DNA of 32,000 nt, taken from the NCBI RefSeq assembly GCF_036917555.1, contig NZ_JBALDD010000092.1, positions 22,762 to 54,761 of the forward strand, read 5' to 3'. Below, one piece after another: positions 14,836 through 25,690 of this stretch. The notes below the pieces were generated by a model. It was given only the letters and a program-made list of their open reading frames with translations. It searched no databases and was not told the origin of the DNA. Source of the stretch: Nostoc sp. (lineage in GTDB: Bacteria; Cyanobacteriota; Cyanobacteriia; Cyanobacteriales; Nostocaceae). The position numbers and the translations under genes are program-made. How positions within the stretch are numbered: position 1 is the stretch's first letter; the number at the start of each line of letters is the position of its first letter.

Positions 14836-16506
14836 TTAGGCTCCGGGTTTTAAATAATCGAAGAGGCGATCGCCTGAATCTGCGCGAATCAATGCTACAA
14901 CTACATCTGGTAAGGTGGCTAAACTGGGGTAAACTAAATAACGCGGTTCCCAACGAGGGCGGAACTTGTCTTTGTAGGCGTGCAGTCCCTTGAAGTTGTA
15001 AAAGCGATTCAAATGGTCGTAAAGATAGTGCAATACTTTTTCCAAACGGCGCGATTCAGGATTTTCTCCAACTCCAGCAAGTGCAGAAAGGCCGAAATTA
15101 AAGCTGTCGTAACCACACTCTTTAAAATGCTGGAGCAGGGAAATAAATAGAAAGTCCATTGTGCCATTTTCAAGAGATGAGCGATGTCGCATCATGTCAA
15201 TAGTCGCTTCGTTAAGTTGGTACTCCCGGATAATGTTGGCAAAGGCGCTAATCTGACCTTCAGGATTATGCACCACAGCAATCTCGCACTCTCGCAGGTA
15301 AGCTTCGTCAAACCAACCTAAAGAAAATTGTTTTTCTGAACCTTGTACCATTTTCAACCATTCATCACTTACAGGTTTGAGGCGATGCAATAAATCATTG
15401 GCGATGGGTGGTTGGTAAAAGTCGATTTGGTATCCTAGTTTAGTTAAACGACTGATTGATGGTCTAAAGTTTTTACCAGCTTTACCTTGTAACGTAAAAC
15501 TTTTTAAGTCAACGATCGCTTCCTCTCCAATCTTGAGTACCTTAAACCCCAATGACTTGTAAAGCTCAACATCATCGGGCATAGTTTGGTAAAAGCCAGG
15601 ATACCAGTCGTTGCGCTGACAAAACTGCCAGAAAGCAATAATTGTCTCTTTGCGGTCTTCAGTGGGGCCGATGGGATCTCCTAATGCGATCGCACCCCGT
15701 CCTTTGGGAACATAAGCAATTACACTATTACCCGAAGGACTGAAATAATAACTTTTATCATTTAAGAGTGTAAGCGCTGCTAAAGAAGAACATCCATATT
15801 GCTCGACAATTTCTTTAGCTCTTTGTCGCTCATTTGTAGTTGCTAGATTCTGCCAAAACACAGGTTGCAACAGCATTACTATTGCATAAGTAATAGTACC
15901 TGCGGCAATAATATAGATAGAATTAGCAAAAAATTCTCCAAATCGACTCTTTGGTTGCAGTCCCCAATTATCCTCAGTGAAGAACATCGCCAAAGTCTGA
16001 ACTATCGCTTCTCGCCAATTAAAGTTCTCTGAAAATTTGCCGTCTAACAAGTAAAATCCAATGGTTCCGTATGCGAGAGTAAATAATAAAGCGCCTATCA
16101 GCACTCTAACTCCCCGTGCGATGGAAGGACGGTCTGATTGCGCCGTAAAAAAATGGCGCATCAAGATTAATTGCACCAATAAAACTCCAGAGAGTAGACT
16201 TTCTTCATAGTCCAGTCCCTTCAGCAAGTGGCTGCAAATAGAAATTATTAGTAAAGCAATGGTTAGTAACCAGGCTATTCTTTTCCGGCGTAATAAATTA
16301 GTAGCAAGTGTTAATAAAATAAACCCAGTTAATGCTGCAAATATATGACCACTGGCACGAATTTCAAATGGTAAAAGTTCCTTTAACCAGTGAGTCCGCC
16401 CGTACAGGTTAGGTGTCACTGCTGATAATAAATTTACTACTCCGACTAAACCTGTTAGGAAAGCTGCACTCCAAAGTCCAATCTGAGTTTTTAAATTATT
16501 TGTCAT
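14836..16506 (-). CDS. aminoacyl-phosphatidylglycerol synthase, MprF C-terminal half (6 TM plus DUF2156/LPG-synthase domain)
   Basis: From memory, strong colinear match to the MprF synthase domain. Shared motifs: GEEAIVDLKSFTLQGKAGKNFR, VSDEWL, EKQFSLGWFDEAYL, DMMRHR...GTMDFLFISLL, FNFGLSALAGVG, YNFKGLHAYKDKFRPRWEPRYLVY. Confidence 0.9.
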   Translation of the reverse strand: MTNNLKTQIGLWSAAFLTGLVGVVNLLSAVTPNLYGRTHWLKELLPFEIRASGHIFAALTGFILLTLATNLLRRKRIAWLLTIALLIISICSHLLKGLDYEESLLSGVLLVQLILMRHFFTAQSDRPSIARGVRVLIGALLFTLAYGTIGFYLLDGKFSENFNWREAIVQTLAMFFTEDNWGLQPKSRFGEFFANSIYIIAAGTITYAIVMLLQPVFWQNLATTNERQRAKEIVEQYGCSSLAALTLLNDKSYYFSPSGNSVIAYVPKGRGAIALGDPIGPTEDRKETIIAFWQFCQRNDWYPGFYQTMPDDVELYKSLGFKVLKIGEEAIVDLKSFTLQGKAGKNFRPSISRLTKLGYQIDFYQPPIANDLLHRLKPVSDEWLKMVQGSEKQFSLGWFDEAYLRECEIAVVHNPEGQISAFANIIREYQLNEATIDMMRHRSSLENGTMDFLFISLLQHFKECGYDSFNFGLSALAGVGENPESRRLEKVLHYLYDHLNRFYNFKGLHAYKDKFRPRWEPRYLVYPSLATLPDVVVALIRADSGDRLFDYLKPGA

Positions 16507-16517
16507 TTTTCATTAGT

Positions 16518-16584
16518 AGTTAGGAGTGAGGAGTTAGAAGTTAGGAGTTTTCAATTTTTAACTCTTAACTCCTAACTCCTAACT
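16518..16584. repeat. STRR-type heptamer inverted-repeat hairpin
   Basis: gttagga-type heptamers x4 (16518-16549), loop ttcaattttt, then aactcct-type heptamers x3-4 (16560-16584). It covers the stop codon of the upstream esterase gene and ends 12 nt before the mprF-like ATG. Confidence 0.8.
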
Positions 16585-17473
16585 TTTTAAACTGTTCTCC
16601 GACATAGGAGAGTGAATCTTTAAGATGTTTATGAAAGTAGTTCCAGCCTACATTAGCACCAGATAAACCATGACCTCCAGGAAATGCATAAAATACGTGA
16701 GCAATGCCTAATTTATTTAAGGTTTCGTTGAAGGCTTTGGTAGAAGCTAGCAAATTAGTATCGTTCAAACCAGCATCTAGGTAAACACGCAATCGCTTCC
16801 TATCTTGAACTGTTAGCTGTTGCACAATTTGTTGAGGACTATTTTGTGAATCGCTGTCATCAGTAAAGTAACCGCTATGGCTAAACAAAATCTGAAAGTT
16901 GTTGAGATAGCGTAATCCGATATTAAATGCACCCCATCCTCCAGAAGATATACCTCCTAGCGCCCAAAATTGGGGTTCTTCCAAAGTGCGATAGCGCGAC
17001 TTGACAACTTGTACTAATTCTGAACCAATCAAAGTTCCCACTTTGCCATTCGGCCCATCAAAGTAATCGGGGTCGTATAAAGGACTAGAACCGCGATTAT
17101 CATTACCATCAGGTGTAATCACAATCGATGGCGGTAATTTTCCACTTTGATAAAGTTCATGCAATACGTTTAAGAGTGCGTATTTATCAGCATAAGCACG
17201 AGCATCATCATGACCACCGTGTAGTAAAAATATCAGAGGGTAGCGCTTTTGGGGATTTTTGCTATAAGTAGGGGGCAAAATCACGCCGTAGTTACGGACT
17301 GCACCCATCACTTGGGAGTTGAAGGTTGCTAATTGAAACTTTAGCCCAGTATTTGCCGCTTTTTTGGGTGGGTCTAGTTGTGGCGCACCTAAGATGAATA
17401 CATAATAATAACCAGCAGTAGTAAGAAGTGCGATCGCTCCTACCAAGCTAATTAACAATTTATAAATCTTCAT
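16565..17473 (-). CDS. membrane-anchored alpha/beta-hydrolase, esterase family (esterase D / putative-esterase type)
   Basis: N-terminal anchor helix (LLISLVGAIALLTTAGYYYVFIL), oxyanion-type LLHGGH, and nucleophile elbow GGISSGGWGA. Paralogue of the next gene. Confidence 0.82.
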   Translation of the reverse strand: MKIYKLLISLVGAIALLTTAGYYYVFILGAPQLDPPKKAANTGLKFQLATFNSQVMGAVRNYGVILPPTYSKNPQKRYPLIFLLHGGHDDARAYADKYALLNVLHELYQSGKLPPSIVITPDGNDNRGSSPLYDPDYFDGPNGKVGTLIGSELVQVVKSRYRTLEEPQFWALGGISSGGWGAFNIGLRYLNNFQILFSHSGYFTDDSDSQNSPQQIVQQLTVQDRKRLRVYLDAGLNDTNLLASTKAFNETLNKLGIAHVFYAFPGGHGLSGANVGWNYFHKHLKDSLSYVGEQFKKLGVRS

Positions 17474-17599
17474 ATTCTTTTAGTGTAAAAAAAATCACCT
17501 TTACTAGGACTTACTAGAATTAATTTACTGAAAAATGGCAGTATTTTTTTTACATTAATGTTTAAATATCAACGGCTTGGCAGAATAGTATTATTTCTA

Positions 17600-18586
17600 C
17601 TAGGGATTAATTTTTTTGAGCGTTTTTTTATGATTAATACTTAAATTTTTCTCAGTCATATTTGCTGTTTCTGAAGCTCGAAATTGTTCGCCGACAAATG
17701 TCAATGAGTTTGCTAAATGTTTCCGCCAATATTGCCAAGTGTGACTGCCAGGAAACTGACGAAATGAATTATAAATTTTCAGTTTATTTAGGACTTTACT
17801 AAATCGCTCTGCTTCGCCAATTTCATCAATATCTGATGTACCTGAATCTAAGTAAATCTTCAACCTTTTTTGAGCTTGTGTGGGAATGGTTTTAATATAA
17901 GATATTGGGCTATTTGCTGCGCCACTTTTATCTTTAAAATAGCCACTATGACTAAATAAAATTGAGAAATGCTCGACATTGTGTAATCCGACATTGATTG
18001 CTCCCCAACCACCAGAAGATAGACCACCTATCGCCCAAAAATCTGGATTAGTTAATGTACGATAACGGCTTTGCACAACTTTTACTAACTCATCGCCTAC
18101 GGCTGTAGAGACTTTCCCGTTAGGGCCATCGATATATTCCGGATCTCGGTAGGGACTAGAGCCACGCTTGTCGTTACCATCTGGTGTAATGATGATGCTG
18201 GGTGGCAACTTACCTGTAGTATAAAGTTGTTCTACAGTCTTGAGAGCTTCTCCCTTACTCTGAATAAACCAACTACTGGGATCACCATGTCCACCGTGGA
18301 GGAGAAAGATTACAGGATACCTTTGTTTTAAGTTTTGCTCATAGCCAGGAGGTAAAGAAACGCCATAAGTGCGACTTGCACCCATTACTTTACTATCGTA
18401 GGTTTCAATTTTATAGGTTAGGAGAGTCGCTGAGTTGCTAGTATTGCGCTGGGTTGGAAGAACGGAAGGCGTTGTTTGTAAATCCTGCTGTTGCGATGGT
18501 TTTGCGACGACAGTTTGGGAGAAATTACAGCCAACTAAGGTTAATACTGAAAATAACAAGAAAATTTTAGATTGTTTGTAGTTCAT
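17600..18586 (-). CDS. lipoprotein alpha/beta-hydrolase, esterase family (paralogue of 16565..17473)
   Basis: Lipobox LTLVGC. Shares YPVIFLLHGGH, KLPPSIIITPDGNDKRGSSP, GPNGKV, SRYRTL, GGLSSGGWGA and ILFSHSGYF with its neighbour. Confidence 0.82.
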   Translation of the reverse strand: MNYKQSKIFLLFSVLTLVGCNFSQTVVAKPSQQQDLQTTPSVLPTQRNTSNSATLLTYKIETYDSKVMGASRTYGVSLPPGYEQNLKQRYPVIFLLHGGHGDPSSWFIQSKGEALKTVEQLYTTGKLPPSIIITPDGNDKRGSSPYRDPEYIDGPNGKVSTAVGDELVKVVQSRYRTLTNPDFWAIGGLSSGGWGAINVGLHNVEHFSILFSHSGYFKDKSGAANSPISYIKTIPTQAQKRLKIYLDSGTSDIDEIGEAERFSKVLNKLKIYNSFRQFPGSHTWQYWRKHLANSLTFVGEQFRASETANMTEKNLSINHKKTLKKINP

Positions 18587-18738: not shown

Positions 18739-19683
18739 ATGATGCTTAAAAAGCTGCGACTCAATTTTAGTTCTTTGTTTGGCTTGTTGCTGCTGGTGCT
18801 TTCCCTGTGGGCGATCGCTCACGAATTGCATGAGTATAATTATCGTGATATCCTCAATTCTCTAGCTGCTATTCCCAAAAGTCGCTTAAGTTGGGCAATT
18901 TGGCTGACAGCTTTGGGCTATCTAGTGATGATTGGGTACGATATCTTAGGTTTTAACTACATTAATCGTTCTTTAAATTGGAATAAGATAGCTTTCACTA
19001 ACTTTATTAGCTCTGCATTTAGTAATACCATCGGTTTTGCCTTACTGACTGGCAGTGCTATCCGTTATCGATTTTATGCTAATTGGGGAGTTTCAGCAAT
19101 TGCGATCGCTCAAGTAATTGCTTTCGCCAATTTTACTTTTTGGTTGGGGATGTTTGCCGTTGCAGGTTTATTATTCCTCATCAACCCCCTGAAGATTCCC
19201 ACTCAATTACATTTACCTTTTGCTACTGTGCGTCCCATCGGTGTGATTTTTCTGCTATTAGTTGTGGTTTATTTACTAGGAAGTATTTTTATTAAACAAC
19301 CATTAATAATTCGTGAACATGAATTTCGATTTCCTTCTATTAAAATATCTCTGGCTCAAATAGCAATTTCTAGTTTTGACTGGATTCTGGCGGCGGCAGT
19401 TCTTTATGCTTTACTTCCTAGCAATATATCTTTGTCATATCTAGACTTTTTGGGAATTTATTTATTAGCGATGTTTGCAGGTGTGGTTAGTAATGTCCCC
19501 GGTGGTTTGGGAGTATTTGAAACTATAATTTTGCTGATTCTTTCCTCAAAAATTTCGGCGGCGGCAGTTTTGGGTTCAATGTTAGCTTATCGGGGAGTCT
19601 ATTATTTCTTACCTTTGCTAGTAGCAGCAGGCTTACTAGGACTTTATGAAATTAGATTTAGATCCGAAAACTTCCGAAAATGA
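18739..19683 (+). CDS. MprF N-terminal (flippase-like) transmembrane domain protein (LPG_synthase_TM / UPF0104 type)
   Basis: About 8 hydrophobic helices. The motif FISSAFSNTIGFALLTGSAIRYRFY matches the conserved N-terminal half of MprF/LpiA proteins (from memory). Divergently transcribed from the esterase / mprF-synthase genes. Confidence 0.78.
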   Translation: MMLKKLRLNFSSLFGLLLLVLSLWAIAHELHEYNYRDILNSLAAIPKSRLSWAIWLTALGYLVMIGYDILGFNYINRSLNWNKIAFTNFISSAFSNTIGFALLTGSAIRYRFYANWGVSAIAIAQVIAFANFTFWLGMFAVAGLLFLINPLKIPTQLHLPFATVRPIGVIFLLLVVVYLLGSIFIKQPLIIREHEFRFPSIKISLAQIAISSFDWILAAAVLYALLPSNISLSYLDFLGIYLLAMFAGVVSNVPGGLGVFETIILLILSSKISAAAVLGSMLAYRGVYYFLPLLVAAGLLGLYEIRFRSENFRK

Positions 19684-19749: not shown

Positions 19750-19943
19750 TATCTAAGAATTTCAAGTAAGTAAAATCGATAAATAGTGCTAATTTTAAAG
19801 GCGATATCTTTACAAATAGCGGTGAAAATTCATAATTTTTGCTGAGGCGATTGCTAAACAAAGTTTCATGATTTTTTCTGTTATTTTTTAGAAACTGTTA
19901 AACTGAGAACTATAAGTAAAACCTCGTATACTTTGGGAAACTT

Positions 19944-20321
19944 ATGGAGCCAGTATCATTGACAGCTGCTGCGATCGCAACTTTGGTAATCACCAAAGCA
20001 TTTGAAAAAACTGGTGAAATCATTAGCGAAAAGGCTTGGGATGAAGGCGAAAAATTGTTAGTTCTGCTCAAACGCAAGGAACCTAGCACGGCGAAGGCTA
20101 TCGAACAGGCTAAAACACAACCTTTAGATTACAGTCAAGCTTATCTTGTTGGACAGCAAGTAGAGGAAGCGGCGAAGAAAGATCCTGAAATTGCTCAAGC
20201 TGTGGAAGCTGTAGCCAATGAGGCACAACCTCAACTGACGAACACTATTATTGAAAATTGGCAGGGGATAAATATTAAAGGTGGAACTAATACCATTTCT
20301 GGTAACACCTTCAACTTCTGA
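19944..20321 (+). CDS. 125-aa helical N-terminal module of the downstream NLR-like gene, ended by an in-frame TGA
   Basis: ATG at 19944. Hydrophobic first helix MEPVSLTAAAIATLVITKAF, a K/E/A-rich helical body, and a G/N/T-rich tail NWQGINIKGGTNTISGNTFNF. Same reading frame as 20373..23135, with only the TGA at 20319-20321 between them. Confidence 0.6.
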   Translation: MEPVSLTAAAIATLVITKAFEKTGEIISEKAWDEGEKLLVLLKRKEPSTAKAIEQAKTQPLDYSQAYLVGQQVEEAAKKDPEIAQAVEAVANEAQPQLTNTIIENWQGINIKGGTNTISGNTFNF

Positions 20322-20372
20322 CTAAAGTCGCCCCAAGAAGAATCGATACTTTCTACTGGAATACCGCAAAAT

Positions 20373-23135
20373 TTGCCCCTGAGTGGGGTGGTGGAATTTG
20401 TCGGACGTGAGGAAGAATTGAAAAATCTTCACCAACTTTTGCAGGATAATAAACAAGTTGCCATTGCTGCGATCGCTGGGATGGGTGGAGTTGGTAAAAC
20501 AGAACTTGCCCTGCAATATGCCATCCAGCGCCGCGAAACATATAACGGTGGGCTTTGCTGGTTGCTGGCAAAAACTGGAGATGTGGGCATTCAAGTTGTG
20601 CAGTTTGCGAGAACGCAGCTGGATTTAAAGCCGCCAGAAGATTTTGATTTACTCGCCCAAGTGCAATATTGTTGGCGGCGTTGGCGTGAAGGTGATGTGC
20701 TGCTAGTTTTGGATGATGTAAGTGACTACGAGCAAGTCAAACCTTACTTACAGTCGCTACCTTCTCGGTTTAAAGTGTTGATAACTACGCGCCAGAACTT
20801 GGGACGCATTGCACAGTTATCTTTGGATGTGCTGCAACCAGAGGCGGCGCTGGAGTTATTAAAGTATTTACTCAAAGAAACACCGGGGCGAATTGAAAAA
20901 GAATTAGCTTTAGCAAATCAGTTGTGTGAATGGCTGGGATATTTACCTTTGGGCGTGGAATTAGTTGGGCGATATTTGGCGCGGAAACAGGATTTATCTT
21001 TAGCAGAAATGTTGCGGCGGTTGGAGAACAAGCGATTAGAACAAGCTGCTCTTAATGAACCAGAAGCCGACATGACAGCACAACGAGGTGTGTTAGCAGC
21101 CTTTGAGTTGAGTTGGCAAGAATTAGAGGATGACGAGAAGCAATTAGGTTGTTTATTGAGTTTATTTGCCGCCGCACCAATACCCTGGAATTTGGTGGAA
21201 GAGTGTGTAATGGAGAACTTGGGTAAAAATAAAAATAAAATCCCACGTCTACTGGCCTTATTAGACATATCCTCTGGTGGAAGCTTTACAGTGTCTAGGC
21301 TGCAACTTAGTTTCTGGAGATGTCTATTGTTAAGCCTCAACTGGATATGTAACATACGATTTAAGCTTGAGAGCAAGTCTGTAGAGAAAAATGTAGAAAA
21401 TTTAGAGAAAATCAGAGACGATAGCTTAGTAAATCTACATTTACTCCAGCGCAAAGGTCAGGGAATCTATCAACTGCATCCACTGTTGCGGGAGTTTTTC
21501 CAATACAAGTTTAGAGGGTTAGATGATGCAGAGAAATTTATGCGATCGCTTTGTAAGGAAATGGTAGCAATCGCCAAAGGGATTCCTAAAACACCCACCC
21601 TTGAGCAAATCACCGCCGTCTCCATCACCATACCTCATATAGCCGAAGTAGCGAATAATCTAATTCAATGGGTCAGCGATGAAAATTTATTTTGGGTATT
21701 TACTGGTAACGCTAATTTTTACGATGGTCAGGGATTATATGATCAGGCAGAACTCTGGTATGAGCAGTGTATAGAAGTCACAAAAAAACGGTTGGGTGAG
21801 CAACATCCAGATTTCGCTGCTAGTCTCAACAACCTAGCAGGACTCTACAAATCCCAAGGCAGATACAGCAAAGCCGAACCTATTTACATCCAAGCTTTAG
21901 CACTCAACCGCAAGCGGTTGGGAAAAAAACATCCATCTGTCGCCAGCAGCCTCAACAACCTAGCAGGACTCTACAAATCCCAAGGCAGATACAGCGAAGC
22001 TGAATCCCTTTTAATCCAAGCTTTAACACTCAGGCGCAAGCGGCTGGGAAAAAAACATCCAGATTTCGCTACTACTCTCAACAACCTAGCAGGACTCTAC
22101 GAATCCCAAGGCAGATACAGCGAAGCCGAACCTCTTTATGTCCAAGCTTTAGCACTCAGGCGTAAACTGCTGGGAGAAGAACATCCAGATGTTGCTACTA
22201 GTCTCAACAACCTAGCAACACTCTACAACTCCCAAGGTAGATACAGCGAAGCCGAACCTCTTTATGTCCAAGCTTTAGCACTCAGGCGCAAGTTGCTGGG
22301 AGAAGAACATCCAGATGTCGCTACTAGTCTCAACAACCTAGCAACACTCTACAACTCCCAAGGCAAATACAGAGAAGCCGAACCTTTATCCATGCAAGCT
22401 TTAGCACTCAGGCGCAAGCTGCTGGGAGAAGAACATCCAGATGTCGCTGCTAGTCTCAACAACCTAGCAGCACTCTATGAATCCCAAGGCAGATACAGCG
22501 AAGCCGAACCTCTTTACGTCCAAGCTTTAGCACTCAGGCGCAAGCTGCTGGGAGAAGAACATCCAGATGTCGCTGCTAGTCTTAATAACCTAGCAGCACT
22601 TTATGAATCCCAAGGCAGATACAGCGAAGCCGAACCTCTTTATGTCCAAGCTTTAGCACTCAGGCGCAAACTGCTGGGAGAAGAACATCCAGATGTCGCT
22701 GCTAGTCTTAATAACCTAGCAGCACTCTATGAATCCCAAGGCAGATACAGCGAAGCCGAACCTCTTTACGTCCAAGCTTTAGCACTCTGCCGCAAACTGC
22801 TAGGAGAAGAACATCCATCTGTCGCTGCTAGCCTCAACAACCTAGCAGGACTCTATAACTTCCAAGGAAGATGCAGCGAAGCCGAAACCCTTTACAGCCA
22901 AGCCTTGGCACTCAAGCGCAAGTTGCTGGGAGAAGAACATCCATCTGTCGCTGTTAGCCTCTACAACCTAGCAGGACTCTATAAATCCCAAGGCAGATAC
23001 AGCGAAGCCGAACCCCTTTACATCCAGGCTTTGAATATTTGTGAGCGACGGTTAGGGATGGATCATCCCAAGACTGTTACTTCTCGTGATAATTTAGCAT
23101 ATATTCGCGATCGCCTCTCCCAAAATCCAGAATAA
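20373..23135 (+). CDS. NB-ARC (STAND NTPase) plus TPR-repeat protein, bacterial NLR-like; start codon uncertain
   Basis: Walker A GMGGVGKTELA, Walker B LLVLDDV, sensor KVLITTR and GLPL-type GYLPLGVEL. Then ten 42-aa TPR units (LNNLAGLYKSQGRYSEAEPLY type). The track start is a TTG with no visible SD. The open frame continues upstream to the TGA at 20319. Confidence 0.9.
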   Translation: MPLSGVVEFVGREEELKNLHQLLQDNKQVAIAAIAGMGGVGKTELALQYAIQRRETYNGGLCWLLAKTGDVGIQVVQFARTQLDLKPPEDFDLLAQVQYCWRRWREGDVLLVLDDVSDYEQVKPYLQSLPSRFKVLITTRQNLGRIAQLSLDVLQPEAALELLKYLLKETPGRIEKELALANQLCEWLGYLPLGVELVGRYLARKQDLSLAEMLRRLENKRLEQAALNEPEADMTAQRGVLAAFELSWQELEDDEKQLGCLLSLFAAAPIPWNLVEECVMENLGKNKNKIPRLLALLDISSGGSFTVSRLQLSFWRCLLLSLNWICNIRFKLESKSVEKNVENLEKIRDDSLVNLHLLQRKGQGIYQLHPLLREFFQYKFRGLDDAEKFMRSLCKEMVAIAKGIPKTPTLEQITAVSITIPHIAEVANNLIQWVSDENLFWVFTGNANFYDGQGLYDQAELWYEQCIEVTKKRLGEQHPDFAASLNNLAGLYKSQGRYSKAEPIYIQALALNRKRLGKKHPSVASSLNNLAGLYKSQGRYSEAESLLIQALTLRRKRLGKKHPDFATTLNNLAGLYESQGRYSEAEPLYVQALALRRKLLGEEHPDVATSLNNLATLYNSQGRYSEAEPLYVQALALRRKLLGEEHPDVATSLNNLATLYNSQGKYREAEPLSMQALALRRKLLGEEHPDVAASLNNLAALYESQGRYSEAEPLYVQALALRRKLLGEEHPDVAASLNNLAALYESQGRYSEAEPLYVQALALRRKLLGEEHPDVAASLNNLAALYESQGRYSEAEPLYVQALALCRKLLGEEHPSVAASLNNLAGLYNFQGRCSEAETLYSQALALKRKLLGEEHPSVAVSLYNLAGLYKSQGRYSEAEPLYIQALNICERRLGMDHPKTVTSRDNLAYIRDRLSQNPE
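21798..23057 (+). repeat. ten tandem 126-bp (42-codon) TPR units
   Basis: The period was verified by hand. The units start at 21798 plus n x 126. The units at 22428, 22554 and 22680 are nearly identical at DNA level. Confidence 0.95.
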
Positions 23136-23219
23136 GCTAGTTTTGTGCAAAGCGTACCGTGATAAAACTGAAAAGTGCGATCGCCTAGACTAAAATTCAT
23201 ATTGAATTAAGTAAAAATG

Positions 23220-23500
23220 CCATTCGACTTACTCAAAATGAGCTTTGATTTACTCAAAAGCAGCTTTGACTTTCTCAAAAGCAGCTTTGACTTTCTCATT
23301 TTGGTGTTTTCCGCAAGCAAAAGCAGCTTTGACTTTCTCAAAAGCAGCTTTGACTTTCTCATTTTGGTGTTTTCCGCAAGCAAAAGAAGCTTTGACTTTC
23401 TCAAAAGGAGCTTTTGCTTTCTCATTTTAGTGTTTTCCGCAAGCAAAAGCAGCTTTTATTTTCTCAAACCCCAGTTTGCTTTCTCATTTGAGTAATTCAC
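23220..23500. repeat. phased tandem array, 21-bp and 42-bp modules giving a 63-bp period
   Basis: Module A is agctttgactttctcaaaagc (21 bp). Module B is the same with a 21-bp insert, attttggtgttttccgcaagc (42 bp). AB units lie at 23262-23324, 23325-23387 and 23388-23450, with degenerate copies on both sides. The palindromic core AAAGCAGCTTT or a close variant begins at 23237, 23257, 23278, 23320, 23341, 23383, 23404 and 23446. Confidence 0.9.
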
Positions 23501-23596: not shown

Positions 23597-23956
23597 TTAA
23601 AAAGGAATCCATTCCAACTGATCTATCCATTCTTGTGCCTCAGTAGTCTCCCAAACTAGCAATAGTTCTTGTGCTAATTGCCCTATTGGTATTCTCAGAC
23701 GCAACCAGAATAAGCCCCAAATATGTCCACCTGCTGCCCAATGTGCTTCTAAATGAGCCGGCATACTAGCGCGGTTATCTGTCATTAACAGCCGTTGAGA
23801 TAATTGTAGATAACCCAACACATCAGGATCTAAAGTTCCTAATGTTGGTGCATTACTTTCACCCACACGTAAAATATCTATCGCAGGGTTAAGACGAAGA
23901 ACAGCTACTTTCAGACGCGGTGACAAATTTTCATCGAGCAAAAAACGAACCTTCAC
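23597..23956 (-). CDS. DUF5615 family protein (PIN-like, toxin-like partner of DUF433)
   Basis: GTG start overlapping the upstream stop (TAGTG). N-terminus MKVRFLLDENLSPRL is typical of the family (from memory). Confidence 0.78.
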   Translation of the reverse strand: MKVRFLLDENLSPRLKVAVLRLNPAIDILRVGESNAPTLGTLDPDVLGYLQLSQRLLMTDNRASMPAHLEAHWAAGGHIWGLFWLRLRIPIGQLAQELLLVWETTEAQEWIDQLEWIPF

Positions 23957-24285
23957 TAAGCACTTACCTGACGTTCATTTCTTTGAGTTTTTAAGATTCT
24001 GAGGCGCTGTACCAAAGATGAAGGATTTGCAACTGATTCTTGGTAACGCTGTTCGCGCCATATTGCCAGACGTGACAGATAAGCTTCGATATCGGCGCGA
24101 TTATGGAGATAGTAAGTAATAGTAGCGTGAATTTGCTCCAAACTCAAACTAGGTAGATTAGCAGCAATTTCTTCCGGCGTATATCCTTCAAAGTAATAAT
24201 CAAGTACATTGTCAATACCAATGCGGTGTCCTTTCAGGCGAATATCATCGGCTGATAAAAAGTCAAAATAATCTTCTAGTTGCAT
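23956..24285 (-). CDS. DUF433 family protein (antitoxin-like)
   Basis: GHRIGIDNVLDYYFEGYTPEEIAANLPSLSLEQIHATITYY is the typical DUF433 core. A 1-nt overlap with the downstream DUF5615 gene implies translational coupling. Confidence 0.82.
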   Translation of the reverse strand: MQLEDYFDFLSADDIRLKGHRIGIDNVLDYYFEGYTPEEIAANLPSLSLEQIHATITYYLHNRADIEAYLSRLAIWREQRYQESVANPSSLVQRLRILKTQRNERQVSA

Positions 24286-24421: not shown

Positions 24422-24784
24422 TTATATAGGCAATCGCCTCACCCGGAAAGTTTCATTACTTACAGAAACAATTGCTCCTACCTCTAAATATTCTTGACAT
24501 TCACTCAAAACATTTATCAAACGTTCATTAATTGCATCATAGTTGTCATTTCCTAATCTAAACAAAATAACACTGGGTAAACTATCTCCACTCACAGCTA
24601 AAAGTTGAGCAAAATCTAAATCTATAGTTAATAAAATTCTCCCTTCTGTACAGGCTTTAATTAAAATTTCATTATCTGGTAGTCTTTGCAAACCTTCATC
24701 ACGTAAATGCACAACATCATAACCATCGCTACGCAACCAAGATACAGTACGTAGTGAAATTCCCATATCTACCAAAAACTTCAT
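24422..24784 (-). CDS. DUF5615 family protein (second copy)
   Basis: I prefer the ATG at 24784 (MKFLVDMGISLRTVSWLR...), which lies 8 nt after the DUF433 stop. The longer track ORF (to 24835) would overlap the upstream gene. Confidence 0.78.
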   Translation of the reverse strand: MKFLVDMGISLRTVSWLRSDGYDVVHLRDEGLQRLPDNEILIKACTEGRILLTIDLDFAQLLAVSGDSLPSVILFRLGNDNYDAINERLINVLSECQEYLEVGAIVSVSNETFRVRRLPI

Positions 24785-24792
24785 TTTACTGG

Positions 24793-25023
24793 TTAAGCAA
24801 TTTTGAATGGATAAACCCGTTCTTGAGTCAACCACGCTGCATAAAGTAAAGATTGACGAATATCCTCTGCTTCTAAATCAGGATATTCTTCTAAAATTTC
24901 TTCTACAGGTTTTCCATTAGCTACCAAATTGACTAATAAAGAAACCGGAATTCGCATCCCACGAATGCAAGCTTGTCCACCCATAATGCTAGGGTCAAAT
25001 GTAATTCTATCTAGACCTAACAT
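24793..25023 (-). CDS. DUF433 family protein (second copy)
   Basis: ITFDPSIMGGQACIRGMRIPVSLLVNLVANGKPVEEILEEYPDLEAEDIRQSLLYAA is the canonical DUF433 signature. Confidence 0.85.
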   Translation of the reverse strand: MLGLDRITFDPSIMGGQACIRGMRIPVSLLVNLVANGKPVEEILEEYPDLEAEDIRQSLLYAAWLTQERVYPFKIA

Positions 25024-25120
25024 AAAATTATCTCTCCCAAATCTCTCTCAAAAACCAACTCCAATCCACAGCAAACGCTACCCTAGAAATCAGTATCACT
25101 CAAACCTTAAAGTTTCAACC

Positions 25121-25690
25121 ATGATAGCCTCGCCCCAACAAAACTACGTCACCGTTGAAGAATACCTCCAAATAGAGGAACAGAGCAATATCAAGCATGA
25201 ATATATAGACGGCTACATCTACGCAATGCCTGGAGCGCTCGATCTACACGTTACCATTGCTCTTAATCTGGCATCTCTCCTCCGTAATCATCTGCGCGGC
25301 TCTGGAAGGCGTGTTTACATCACTGACATGAAAGCCAGAATTGAATCTCTGAATCGCTTTTATTATCCCGATGTGATGGTTACTTGCGATCGACGAGATC
25401 AAGAAACGCCAGGTTATAAAAGATTTCCCTGTTTAATTGTCGAAGTTTTATCTAATTCTACTGAAGCCTTTGACCGGGGCGACAAATTCGCCGATTATCA
25501 AACCCTGGAAAGTCTGCAAGAATATGTTTTAATTAATACAAAACGTCAGCGAGTTGAGTGTTTTCGACGCAATGAGCAAGGGTTGTGGGTTTTACAATCC
25601 TACACAGCAGAACATCAATCATTTCGACTCAACAGCGTGGATTTTGAGGAAACAATGGCAGCACTCTACGAAGATGTAGTTTTTGAATAA
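25121..25690 (+). CDS. Uma2 family (DUF820) PD-(D/E)XK endonuclease
   Basis: Start moved to the ATG at 25121 (MIASPQQNYVTVEEYLQIEE...). Family pattern EYIDGYIYAMPGA, then PDVMV, then LIVEVLSNST..FDRGDKFADYQ, then EYVLIN. Confidence 0.83.
   Translation: MIASPQQNYVTVEEYLQIEEQSNIKHEYIDGYIYAMPGALDLHVTIALNLASLLRNHLRGSGRRVYITDMKARIESLNRFYYPDVMVTCDRRDQETPGYKRFPCLIVEVLSNSTEAFDRGDKFADYQTLESLQEYVLINTKRQRVECFRRNEQGLWVLQSYTAEHQSFRLNSVDFEETMAALYEDVVFE

Follow-up and report, generated by a model that had tools for sequence, protein, structure and literature searches.

In the genome of Nostoc sp. (NCBI RefSeq assembly GCF_036917555.1), two open reading frames (ORFs) placed on the same strand are separated by a single in-frame stop codon; the first encodes a small protein with the features of a Bell-type effector, and the second an NLR-like protein that includes an NB-ARC domain and a TPR region. 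The DNA that was analyzed, referred to here as the window, is a stretch of 32,000 nucleotides of contig NZ_JBALDD010000092.1 (positions 22,762 to 54,761 of the forward strand). In this work we characterized this stop codon and the region that follows it by comparison with related loci, and the results point to programmed readthrough as the probable link between the two genes.

Organization of the locus

The small ORF and the NB-ARC/TPR ORF share one reading frame, as both 19944 and 20373 equal 0 mod 3, and the sole stop between them is the TGA at 20319-20321. Downstream of this codon the frame continues through the 17 codons LKSPQEESILSTGIPQN and then LPLSGVVEFVGREEEL up to the P-loop GMGGVGKT, and it is closed by the stop at 23133-23135. 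This arrangement had been described in a first-pass annotation made from the sequence alone, and it was confirmed here. The NB-ARC/TPR gene adjoins the small ORF on the same strand, as in the pairs formed by a Bell protein and an NLR that carry BASS (bacterial amyloid signalling) motifs, and here it is in frame and with a "gap" of 0 nt. The product of reading through the UGA, as computed, would have 1063 residues and a mass of 119.2 kDa.

The interval between the two ORFs contains no terminator-like site, in line with a single transcript. Within the junction, that is, the TGA and the nucleotides that follow it, the TTGACT or TACAGT-like hexamers do not have a consistent partner hexamer, and the promoter scan was empty there. 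The promoter-like sites upstream of the small ORF, together with the other features of the locus, are listed in Table 1.

The small protein and its C-terminal tail

It has been reported that Bell domains comprise approximately 120-140 residues, with an N-terminal hydrophobic helix and an acidic residue at position 2 or 3, and that they occur mainly in Nostocaceae and Actinobacteria, adjoining NB-ARC/TPR genes (bioRxiv 10.1101/2020.01.06.895854). A conserved "MEPIS" motif has also been described for these domains (bioRxiv 10.1101/2024.11.07.622273), and the BASS sequences show a G/N-rich composition. The protein encoded by the small ORF has 125 residues and starts with MEPVSLTAAAIATLVITK (a MEPVS start), which forms part of an N-terminal hydrophobic helix in a predicted helical bundle. 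In the AlphaFold2 model the helices extend across residues 6-107, with a predicted local distance difference test score of 68, and the tail (residues 104-125) is disordered or of low confidence. This tail, TIIENWQGINIKGGTNTISGNTFNF, has the characteristics of the C-terminal motif of the BASS proteins, i.e. a length of about 25 residues, G/N/Q-richness and a beta-prone sequence; a second copy was not detected in the 32-kb window, where the best other match has an E value of 0.41.

The small protein belongs to a family of its own. More than 200 stand-alone homologues of 124-133 residues were found, with 50-100% identity, and a profile search retrieved 452 cluster representatives at E<=1e-3, of which the best 150 are nearly all 85-175 residues long. 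Scans of the small ORF with Pfam, NCBIfam and PADLOC assigned it to no family, a profile search of the PDB gave no significant match, and in a Foldseek comparison with the PDB the best E value was 1.1, with Rx-CC at rank 2, not significant either. From its features and its genetic context, rather than from a homology score, the assignment of this protein as a Bell-type effector with a BASS-type tail is supported; the identity of this module had not been recognized in the first-pass annotation.

A related protein of 221 residues from a Nostoc metagenome-assembled genome (P0274) carries an in-frame deletion that fuses effector residue 12 straight to the NLR P-loop (MEPVSLTAAAIA followed by GMGGVGKT...). 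This deletion probably occurred via a shared AAIA repeat.

Conservation of the stop codon and its context

Related loci were collected by scanning one genome per species. The 80 loci obtained (L001-L080) were divided in 56 where the small ORF is in frame with an NLR, 4 where it is in frame with another partner, 13 with two separate genes and 7 that are uninformative on account of contig ends, partial matches or disrupted genes. In the in-frame NLR loci, each from a different species-level genome, the stop codon is TGA in 56/56, it is followed by C in 55/56 and by CTA in 52/56, and the consensus of the junction is TGA CTA [CA]AG [TC]CG CC[CT] GAA. The P-loop is found in frame 0, with no intervening stop, at 147, 156, 159, 165 or 186 nt after the TGA. 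As a background, 275 long ORFs from these loci were compared; no stop tetranucleotide is less frequent in them than TGAC (2.2%), and TGACTA is not used by any of the 275. The in-frame loci belong to Nostoc (N. punctiforme NIES-2108, L001, is one strain with this locus), Aulosira, Calothrix, Tolypothrix, Komarekiella, Dendronalium, Amazonocrinis and Floridaenema, the latter a member of the Aerosakkonematales and hence outside the Nostocales; their effector modules are as divergent as 38% identity and carry at least six unrelated tail motifs.

A scan of metagenomes, made with a linker pattern from which the stop was left out, yielded 120 matches, of which 115 were due to chance and 5 were real; in 5/5 of these a TGA precedes the linker, and 4 have new tail motifs and divergent NLRs. 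A sense codon at the position of the stop was found in none of the 56 genome and 5 metagenome in-frame loci. A single protein fusing Bell and NB-ARC/TPR was also sought among the best 150 of the 452 representatives of the small protein, and none is long enough; the longest (700 residues) carries HEAT repeats, and the long representatives scanned have HEAT or GUN4 domains without NB-ARC. The locus also differs from an all-in-one Bell-NLR, in which an uninterrupted ORF runs from the effector through the NOD and the repeats, since here the stop is present and conserved.

It has been reported that termination at UGA-C is inefficient in bacteria, and that cyanobacteria cluster with the species that have more release factor 1 (RF1) than release factor 2 (RF2) (PMC5289835); in wild-type B. 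subtilis, a TGA readthrough of 6% has been described (PMC7918605). The C at 20322 places the stop of the window in this weak context, as the first-pass annotation had pointed out. A conserved stop that is followed by an open in-frame ORF, and a conserved leaky context, UGA-C(UA), are both expected of programmed readthrough, and both are seen here.

The first-pass annotation also offered three readings of the stop: a recent nonsense mutation, an assembly error and a leaky stop. It is very improbable that the TGA arose by nonsense mutation in this strain alone, marks a pseudogene in decay or is an error of assembly. An independent Logan assembly, obtained from another read set, has an identical junction with the same TGA; the 56 genome and 5 metagenome loci that conserve it come from many genera, mostly with long open NLR ORFs; and the stand-alone form of the small protein is itself a family with more than 200 members of 124-133 residues. 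These results refute the first two readings, even though some relatives are indeed damaged (L015, L033 and L071, with short downstream ORFs, as well as L006 and L026) and the hairpin that is described below is degraded in the window, as could be expected from decay.

In L006 (4001-4380) a premature TAA is present at codon 85 of the effector, and the TGA-CTA junction and the open NLR ORF are retained. In L026 (4001-4100) an insert of some 40 nt, with stops in it, breaks the effector ORF behind codon 10.

Two-gene relatives and a second partner family

In the 13 two-gene relatives the NLR has its own start codon (ATG in 10 of them), it lies in any frame relative to the effector, and the effector ends with TAA, TAG or TGA; some have a true intergenic spacer, which in L042 is 68 nt long with stops inside. 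In 13/13 of these loci, the N-terminus of the NLR carries a copy of the effector tail, with tblastn E values from 2e-3 down to 5e-12 in 10. For instance, in L048, L053-55, L060 and L077 the adjacent NLR starts with MT(S/N)ENWQGINIKGG..., copying the tail of the effector, and in the remaining two-gene relatives the NLR repeats the tail type of its own effector. The presence of this copy is a direct proof that the tail is a paired motif. The NLRs of L042 and L045 belong to the same clade as that of the window (MAEKIGVVNYGKTNIG...IGIPENLPLSGVVEFVGREEELQNLHQLLQDNKQ).

In contrast, no second copy of the motif was found in the in-frame loci. In these, the order is the motif, a Pro-rich linker of about 20 residues, and (G)IPQNLP.SGV.FVGRE, so that the effector tail occupies the place of the sensor's own motif. 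A sensor without its own motif is always tied in frame to the effector motif via UGA-CUA, and here only a readthrough fusion would place the motif at the N-terminus of the NLR. The simplest account of this dichotomy is that the predicted fusion is the motif-bearing sensor. It is plausible that the in-frame layout goes back to a pair whose two motif copies recombined.

In four other loci (L050, L051, L052 and L061), a Bell-type effector with a tail is followed by the same junction, TGA-CT[AG], and by an in-frame ORF of 124-133 residues that is not an NLR and has no Pfam family. ATG, GTG and TTG are all absent from its initial 26-43 codons, yet these show pN<pS (non-synonymous and synonymous variation, respectively) like the rest of the ORF (pS 0.21 and pN 0.06 for L051/L052), and the residues of this start-less stretch are conserved. 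At 4 nt after this ORF there is the ATG of a protein of 320-391 residues with weak, sub-threshold Pfam matches, and there is no NLR (L050:4001-5771 and L051:4001-5984).

A hairpin downstream of the stop

In the main subtype of the in-frame junctions, a hairpin can be formed 8 nt after the UGA by a 5-bp stem between +12..+16 (GCCCG) and +25..+29 (CGGGU), with an 8-nt loop, AAnGGGAA. Among 35 distinct sequences of this subtype, 175/175 stem cells are in standard pairs, and 9 cells show compensatory double changes. Pair 13-28 is CG in 32 sequences and UA in 3, and pair 15-26 is CG in 19, UG in 10, UA in 4 and GC in 2; the arms are, for example, GUCGG/CCGAC in L033, GUCCG/CGGAC in L062 and GUCGG/CCGAU in L080. 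The covariation score was matched by 0/500 shuffles, and registers obtained by sliding the arms pair in 38% of the cells at most. A model of the cassette (R1) detects a single copy in each locus and no other copy in 626 kb; it does not detect the window, which is of a different subtype, a minority one with 156 nt between the stop and the P-loop. Structures that act on a ribosome holding the recoded codon in its A site are classically placed at such a spacing of 8 nt.

The hairpin explains part of the nucleotide constraint of the junction. No structure was found that explains the conservation beyond the hairpin, up to approximately codon 20; the fold of the whole 130-nt region has a z-score of -0.8, RNAalifold on 123 nt gave only -6.8 kcal/mol, and no Rfam family matched at the junction.

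The fdhF-type selenocysteine insertion sequence (SECIS) elements of bacteria have the same geometry, an in-frame UGA with a covarying hairpin no more than about 10 nt behind it in the coding sequence, and one could think that the UGA encodes selenocysteine. We regard this as highly unlikely. The linker around the UGA is variable, rich in Pro and Glu and devoid of a redox motif, neither Cys nor any sense codon replaces the UGA in a homologue, the hairpin is absent or different in the subtype of the window and in the second partner family, and, as mentioned, there is no Rfam match. Furthermore, the two cyanobacterial genera named in a survey do not decode selenocysteine, and the short product makes up a conserved and functional protein family in its own right.

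Start candidates and translation of the linker

The candidate starts of the NLR ORF that precede the Met of the P-loop are TTG 20373, GTG 20388 and GTG 20391, and the first in-frame ATG is found at 20481, in agreement with the first-pass annotation. The absence of a Shine-Dalgarno sequence that had been noted there is true, and it says little about initiation, because the ordinary genes of the window do not have it either; besides, GTG 20391 has a moderate anti-Shine-Dalgarno match (-6.2 kcal/mol) with a poor spacing of 2 nt. The annotation pipelines do not agree on the start of the NLR, which is TTG 20373 for P0266 and GTG 20391 in the Logan gene call.

Several lines of evidence suggest that the sequence upstream of these candidates is translated. 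At the position of TTG 20373 the main-subtype relatives have TTG (33), TTA (6), CTC (1) or CTG (1), Leu throughout, as expected for an internal codon. In L030 and L035 there is no ATG, GTG or TTG before codon 35, which is within FVGRxEEL, and in L080 there is none before codon 45; the NLR ORFs of the three loci are longer than 750 codons. All the start candidates are preceded by the sequence TGIPQNLP, whose homologous residues in NLRs with a fused EAD-type or BASS N-terminus are internal and certainly translated, as in P0277 (...SAKPTGIPQNLPRSGVSNFVGRE). The protein search with the NLR N-terminus, in which these homologues were seen, returned only short fragments, which are useful for N-terminal sequences and not for finding fusions. 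Finally, the linker is open and in frame in all the in-frame NLR loci, and its length differences are of 3, 9 and 18 nt, all multiples of three, with no new stop.

Frameshifting was considered and excluded: in the window the +1 frame meets a TAA as its second codon (GAC TAA), the -1 frame stays open for only some 30 codons, and for this reason only frame 0 reaches the NLR. Likewise, an alternative coding frame in the linker was rejected, since frame +2 has a TGA in most loci.

The tryptic peptides predicted for a readthrough fusion are GGTNTISGNTFNF-X-LK, which spans the UGA, and SPQEESILSTGIPQNLPLSGVVEFVGR; either one lies 5' of every start candidate.

Readthrough or internal initiation

We propose that the UGA is a site of programmed readthrough that yields an abundant free effector and a rare effector-motif-NLR fusion, and we assign to this reading a probability of about 0.65. 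It is favoured because of the conservation of the frame, the lack of a conserved start, the dichotomy in the motif copies, and the covarying hairpin located 8 nt downstream of the stop; in addition, the fact that only the fusion would give the NLR an amyloid motif provides a functional reason for readthrough. The leaky stop, which was the third reading of the first-pass annotation, is accordingly the best-supported explanation as judged by comparison, and it stays an interpretation that must accommodate the degraded hairpin of the window. The orthologues that had been suggested there as a way to decide show the same TGA in all the in-frame relatives and no sense codon, and 13 relatives are two-gene loci with their own NLR start.

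The alternative that deserves most consideration, even if it seems unlikely, is that the locus contains two ordinary cistrons and that the NLR is translated by re-initiation or by independent initiation at a TTG, GTG or CTG placed 60-110 nt downstream of the stop. In that case the junction and the hairpin would serve in coupling, processing or regulation, the shared frame would be left over from an origin by recombination of two motif copies, and the NLR and the effector would communicate by a route other than a shared motif. Gene callers do annotate two genes, most loci have a TTG or GTG at codons 20-27, and GTG 20391 has the anti-Shine-Dalgarno match already mentioned. What two cistrons leave unexplained is the exclusive use of UGA-C(UA), the rarest and leakiest context, when the two-gene relatives use TAA, TAG and TGA freely; the multiple-of-three indels and the absence of stops are not accounted for either. 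The start position changes only among Leu codons, L030, L035 and L080 have long open NLR ORFs with no canonical start before the FVGR motif, and TGIPQNLP, which precedes the start candidates, is still homologous to translated sequence. Moreover, the amyloid-type tail of the effector is retained with no partner motif in the locus, and in the second partner family purifying selection acts on the protein within the first 26-43 codons, where there is no start. Internal initiation may also occur besides readthrough, and it would give a 103.7-kDa NLR without the motif.

Other observations weigh against readthrough, and several of them are what two cistrons would predict. The first 20 codons after the stop have a pN/pS of about 1.1, with equal variation at the three codon positions, and their synonymous divergence is 0.12-0.15 vs 0.35-0.40 in the flanks, which indicates that the constraint is on the nucleotides and not on the protein, as in a non-coding leader. 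Given that the linker has no codon periodicity, its translation is argued from the frame, the indels, the absence of stops and the homology. The junction (TGA plus about 45 nt) has been inherited or recombined as one conserved block, and thus many of the in-frame loci are not independent observations and the conservation of the frame is partly due to descent; what counts as independent is a small number of indels together with the absence of new stops, for which a rough estimate gives p ~1e-3. Initiation at TTG 20373, GTG 20388 or GTG 20391 is possible, considering that cyanobacterial genes are often devoid of a Shine-Dalgarno sequence. With respect to the hairpin, its stem is short (5 bp), and the subtype of the window allows a different hairpin that is 93.7% paired and shows no covariation; the window supplies 2/4 of the unpaired cells of its subtype, both in the inner helix. 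The likeness of the small protein to the founding Bell sequences (ONI86675.1 and Bab) is one of features, as the structural and profile searches of the PDB gave no significant match. In general, the support for readthrough is wholly comparative.

The junction (TGA and about 45-60 nt; 20322-20380 in the window, and in L001-L080) is better conserved in its nucleotides than the coding regions on either side are at their synonymous sites. Effector modules could be exchanged by recombination at this place.

Proposed mechanism

According to our model of programmed readthrough, both ORFs would be on one transcript. Most ribosomes would terminate at UGA 20319-20321 and release the free 13.6-kDa effector, with a Bell-type, membrane-targeting helical domain and an amyloid-forming tail. 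A minority would decode the UGA, most likely as Trp by a near-cognate tRNA, favoured by the poor recognition of UGA-C(UA) by RF2, and in most relatives the hairpin placed 8 nt downstream would aid this step. These ribosomes would cross the linker of 17-20 codons into the NB-ARC/TPR region and produce a Bell-tail-NLR fusion of 119 kDa, and in this way a single tail sequence would act as the signalling motif of the sensor and as the receiving motif of the effector. When the TPR sensor is triggered, the fusion would oligomerize and its tails would nucleate an amyloid fold, by which the free effectors would be templated and activated; the ratio of sensor to effector would be set by the readthrough rate. 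The amyloid and recruitment steps are taken over from the published systems, i.e. the Bell/BASS pairs and Bab/Agp. The sequences themselves show the anatomy of the locus, its conservation, the dichotomy in the motif copies and the covariation of the hairpin; from the comparison with relatives and known systems we infer readthrough itself, the inserted amino acid, the amyloid behaviour of the tail, and a role in cell death or defence.

In these terms, the locus is likely to be a Bell/BASS-NLR module for cell-death signalling, like those known from filamentous bacteria, with a single-motif layout, whose two parts would be joined by a programmed leaky stop. Somewhat less firmly, we also consider it probable that UGA-CUA, the 8-nt spacer and the hairpin constitute a conserved recoding cassette that directs readthrough in chromosomal immune genes of filamentous cyanobacteria, where one ORF would yield a free pore-forming executioner and a rare executioner-amyloid motif-NLR fusion. 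To our knowledge, conserved functional readthrough of stop codons in bacterial chromosomal genes is very rare, and, selenocysteine aside, the clear cases belong to phages and viruses.

If this model is correct, an NLR without its own signalling motif could still drive amyloid signalling, and the bacterium would have a built-in way to keep sensors few and executioners many. Given that the receiver and sender motifs would be the same DNA, they could never drift apart. Since this architecture is overlooked by motif-pair screens and by gene callers, the number of amyloid-signalling NLRs in bacteria is probably underestimated. A defined sequence that is conserved over more than 50 cyanobacterial species also represents a testable cassette. 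It is pure speculation that the system, having its stop between effector and sensor, could respond to a weakened UGA termination, for example by a phage suppressor tRNA or by interference with RF2.

Relation to known systems

The locus resembles the Bell/BASS-NLR pairs (bioRxiv 10.1101/2020.01.06.895854) and Bab/Agp of E. coli (bioRxiv 10.1101/2024.11.07.622273) in that it encodes a protein of about 125 residues with a MEP-type hydrophobic helix and a helical bundle. Further points in common are a C-terminal G/N/Q-rich tail of about 25 residues and a collinear, adjacent NB-ARC/TPR gene, here in a filamentous cyanobacterium. Among the relatives, L042/45, L048, L053-55, L057-60 and L077 are textbook pairs of this kind, with the tail motif at the N-terminus of the NLR, whereas the NLR ORF analyzed here has neither a motif copy nor a conserved start, and a conserved UGA-CUA links it in frame to the effector ORF. 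The screen of 2020 demanded the motif on both proteins (bioRxiv 10.1101/2020.01.06.895854) and therefore would miss this layout. The term "stop codon" is absent from both reports (bioRxiv 10.1101/2020.01.06.895854 and 10.1101/2024.11.07.622273), "readthrough" is also absent from the former, and nothing comparable to a dual product from a leaky stop is found in either of them.

In fungi, HET-S/NWD2 and the "all-in-one" HeLo-NLR proteins are similar in that an NLR controls a membrane-targeting helical executioner through a short amyloid motif. Two-gene and fused architectures both exist in these organisms; here, one ORF would make both forms via the leaky stop.

Programmed readthrough is well known in viruses, as in the coat/A1 proteins of Q-beta (UGA), nsP3-UGA-C-nsP4 of alphaviruses, and gag-UAG-pol of MuLV, which has a pseudoknot 8 nt downstream. 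The proposed system would share with these a low, fixed ratio of an extended to an abundant short product, a UGA followed by C or CUA, and, in the main subtype, a possibly stimulatory structure approximately 8 nt downstream. In human readthrough genes, a CUAG motif after the UGA has been reported (bioRxiv 10.64898/2026.07.14.738498). Unlike the viral and mammalian cases, the gene is bacterial and chromosomal, the extension is a sensor of 937 residues, the short product is an effector instead of a capsid protein or a polyprotein, and the stem has only 5 bp.

The autoregulatory site of prfB, which encodes RF2, reads CUU UGA C and also exploits the slow termination of bacteria at UGA-C (PMC5289835); in contrast, prfB uses a +1 frameshift, and here frame 0 is the one that reaches the NLR. 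A general survey has proposed that readthrough of in-frame stops is frequent in bacterial genes, and this system is not mentioned in it (PMC7918605). The parts are therefore known, namely Bell/BASS-NLR signalling on the one hand and readthrough at UGA-C with a downstream structure on the other; the literature searched contained no case of the two combined on a bacterial chromosome and maintained from genus to genus.

Features of the locus and neighbouring genes

Table 1. Features of the effector-NLR locus, with positions in the window
Feature	Position	Strand	Remarks
Promoter-like site TTTACA-16-CATAAT	19809..19836	+	Consensus match only; 5' of the small ORF; count not above shuffles
Second, weaker promoter-like match	19903-19932		5' of the small ORF
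Putative Bell-type effector ORF	19944..20321	+	ATG 19944 to TGA 20319-20321; 125 aa, 13.6 kDa
Helical globular domain, aa 1-107	19944..20264	+	Starts MEPVSLTAAAIATLVITKAFEK; hydrophobic helix, acidic residue at position 2
C-terminal tail TIIENWQGINIKGGTNTISGNTFNF, BASS-type motif	20244..20318	+	G/N/T/I-rich; disordered in the AlphaFold2 model
UGA stop then CUA, proposed readthrough site	20319..20324	+	Next base after TGA is C at 20322
17-codon linker LKSPQEESILSTGIPQN	20322..20372	+	From the stop to the first canonical start candidate; open and in frame in all in-frame NLR loci
Candidate hairpin	20327..20347 (+9 to +29)	+	Degraded: inner helix broken, GAA replacing GGG
Conserved NB-ARC lead-in TGIPQNLPLSGVVEFVGREEEL	20355..20420	+	Begins 6 codons 5' of TTG 20373
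NB-ARC/TPR (NLR-like) ORF	20373..23135	+	From the mechanical ORF list, from TTG; 920 aa, 103.7 kDa
NB-ARC domain	20409..21044	+	Pfam PF00931, E=4e-15, aa 30-241 of the translation from 20322
P-loop GMGGVGKT	20478..20501	+	Met of the motif (20481) is the earliest in-frame ATG
TPR sensor region	21787..23032	+	126-nt unit x 9.9 copies, 88% matches; ~10 TPR_12 units

On the minus strand, a probably spurious 90-residue ORF (20322-20594) overlaps the start of the NB-ARC region; the TAG that ends it is the complement of the CTA next to the TGA. The spacer located directly 3' of the NLR gene (23214-23489) includes tandem repeats of 21 and 63 nt, which result in spurious ORFs on both strands. Further downstream, on the minus strand, there is a DUF433/DUF5615 gene pair and another DUF5615/Mut7-C gene (23597-24285 and 24422-24835), and after the DUF5615 genes, a gene for a Uma2-family endonuclease (24929-25690). 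Upstream of the effector, the LPG_synthase_C and LPG_synthase_TM domains are encoded by separate, divergent genes (14836-16506 on the minus strand and 18739-19683 on the plus strand, respectively), and two esterase genes (16565-18586) lie between them.

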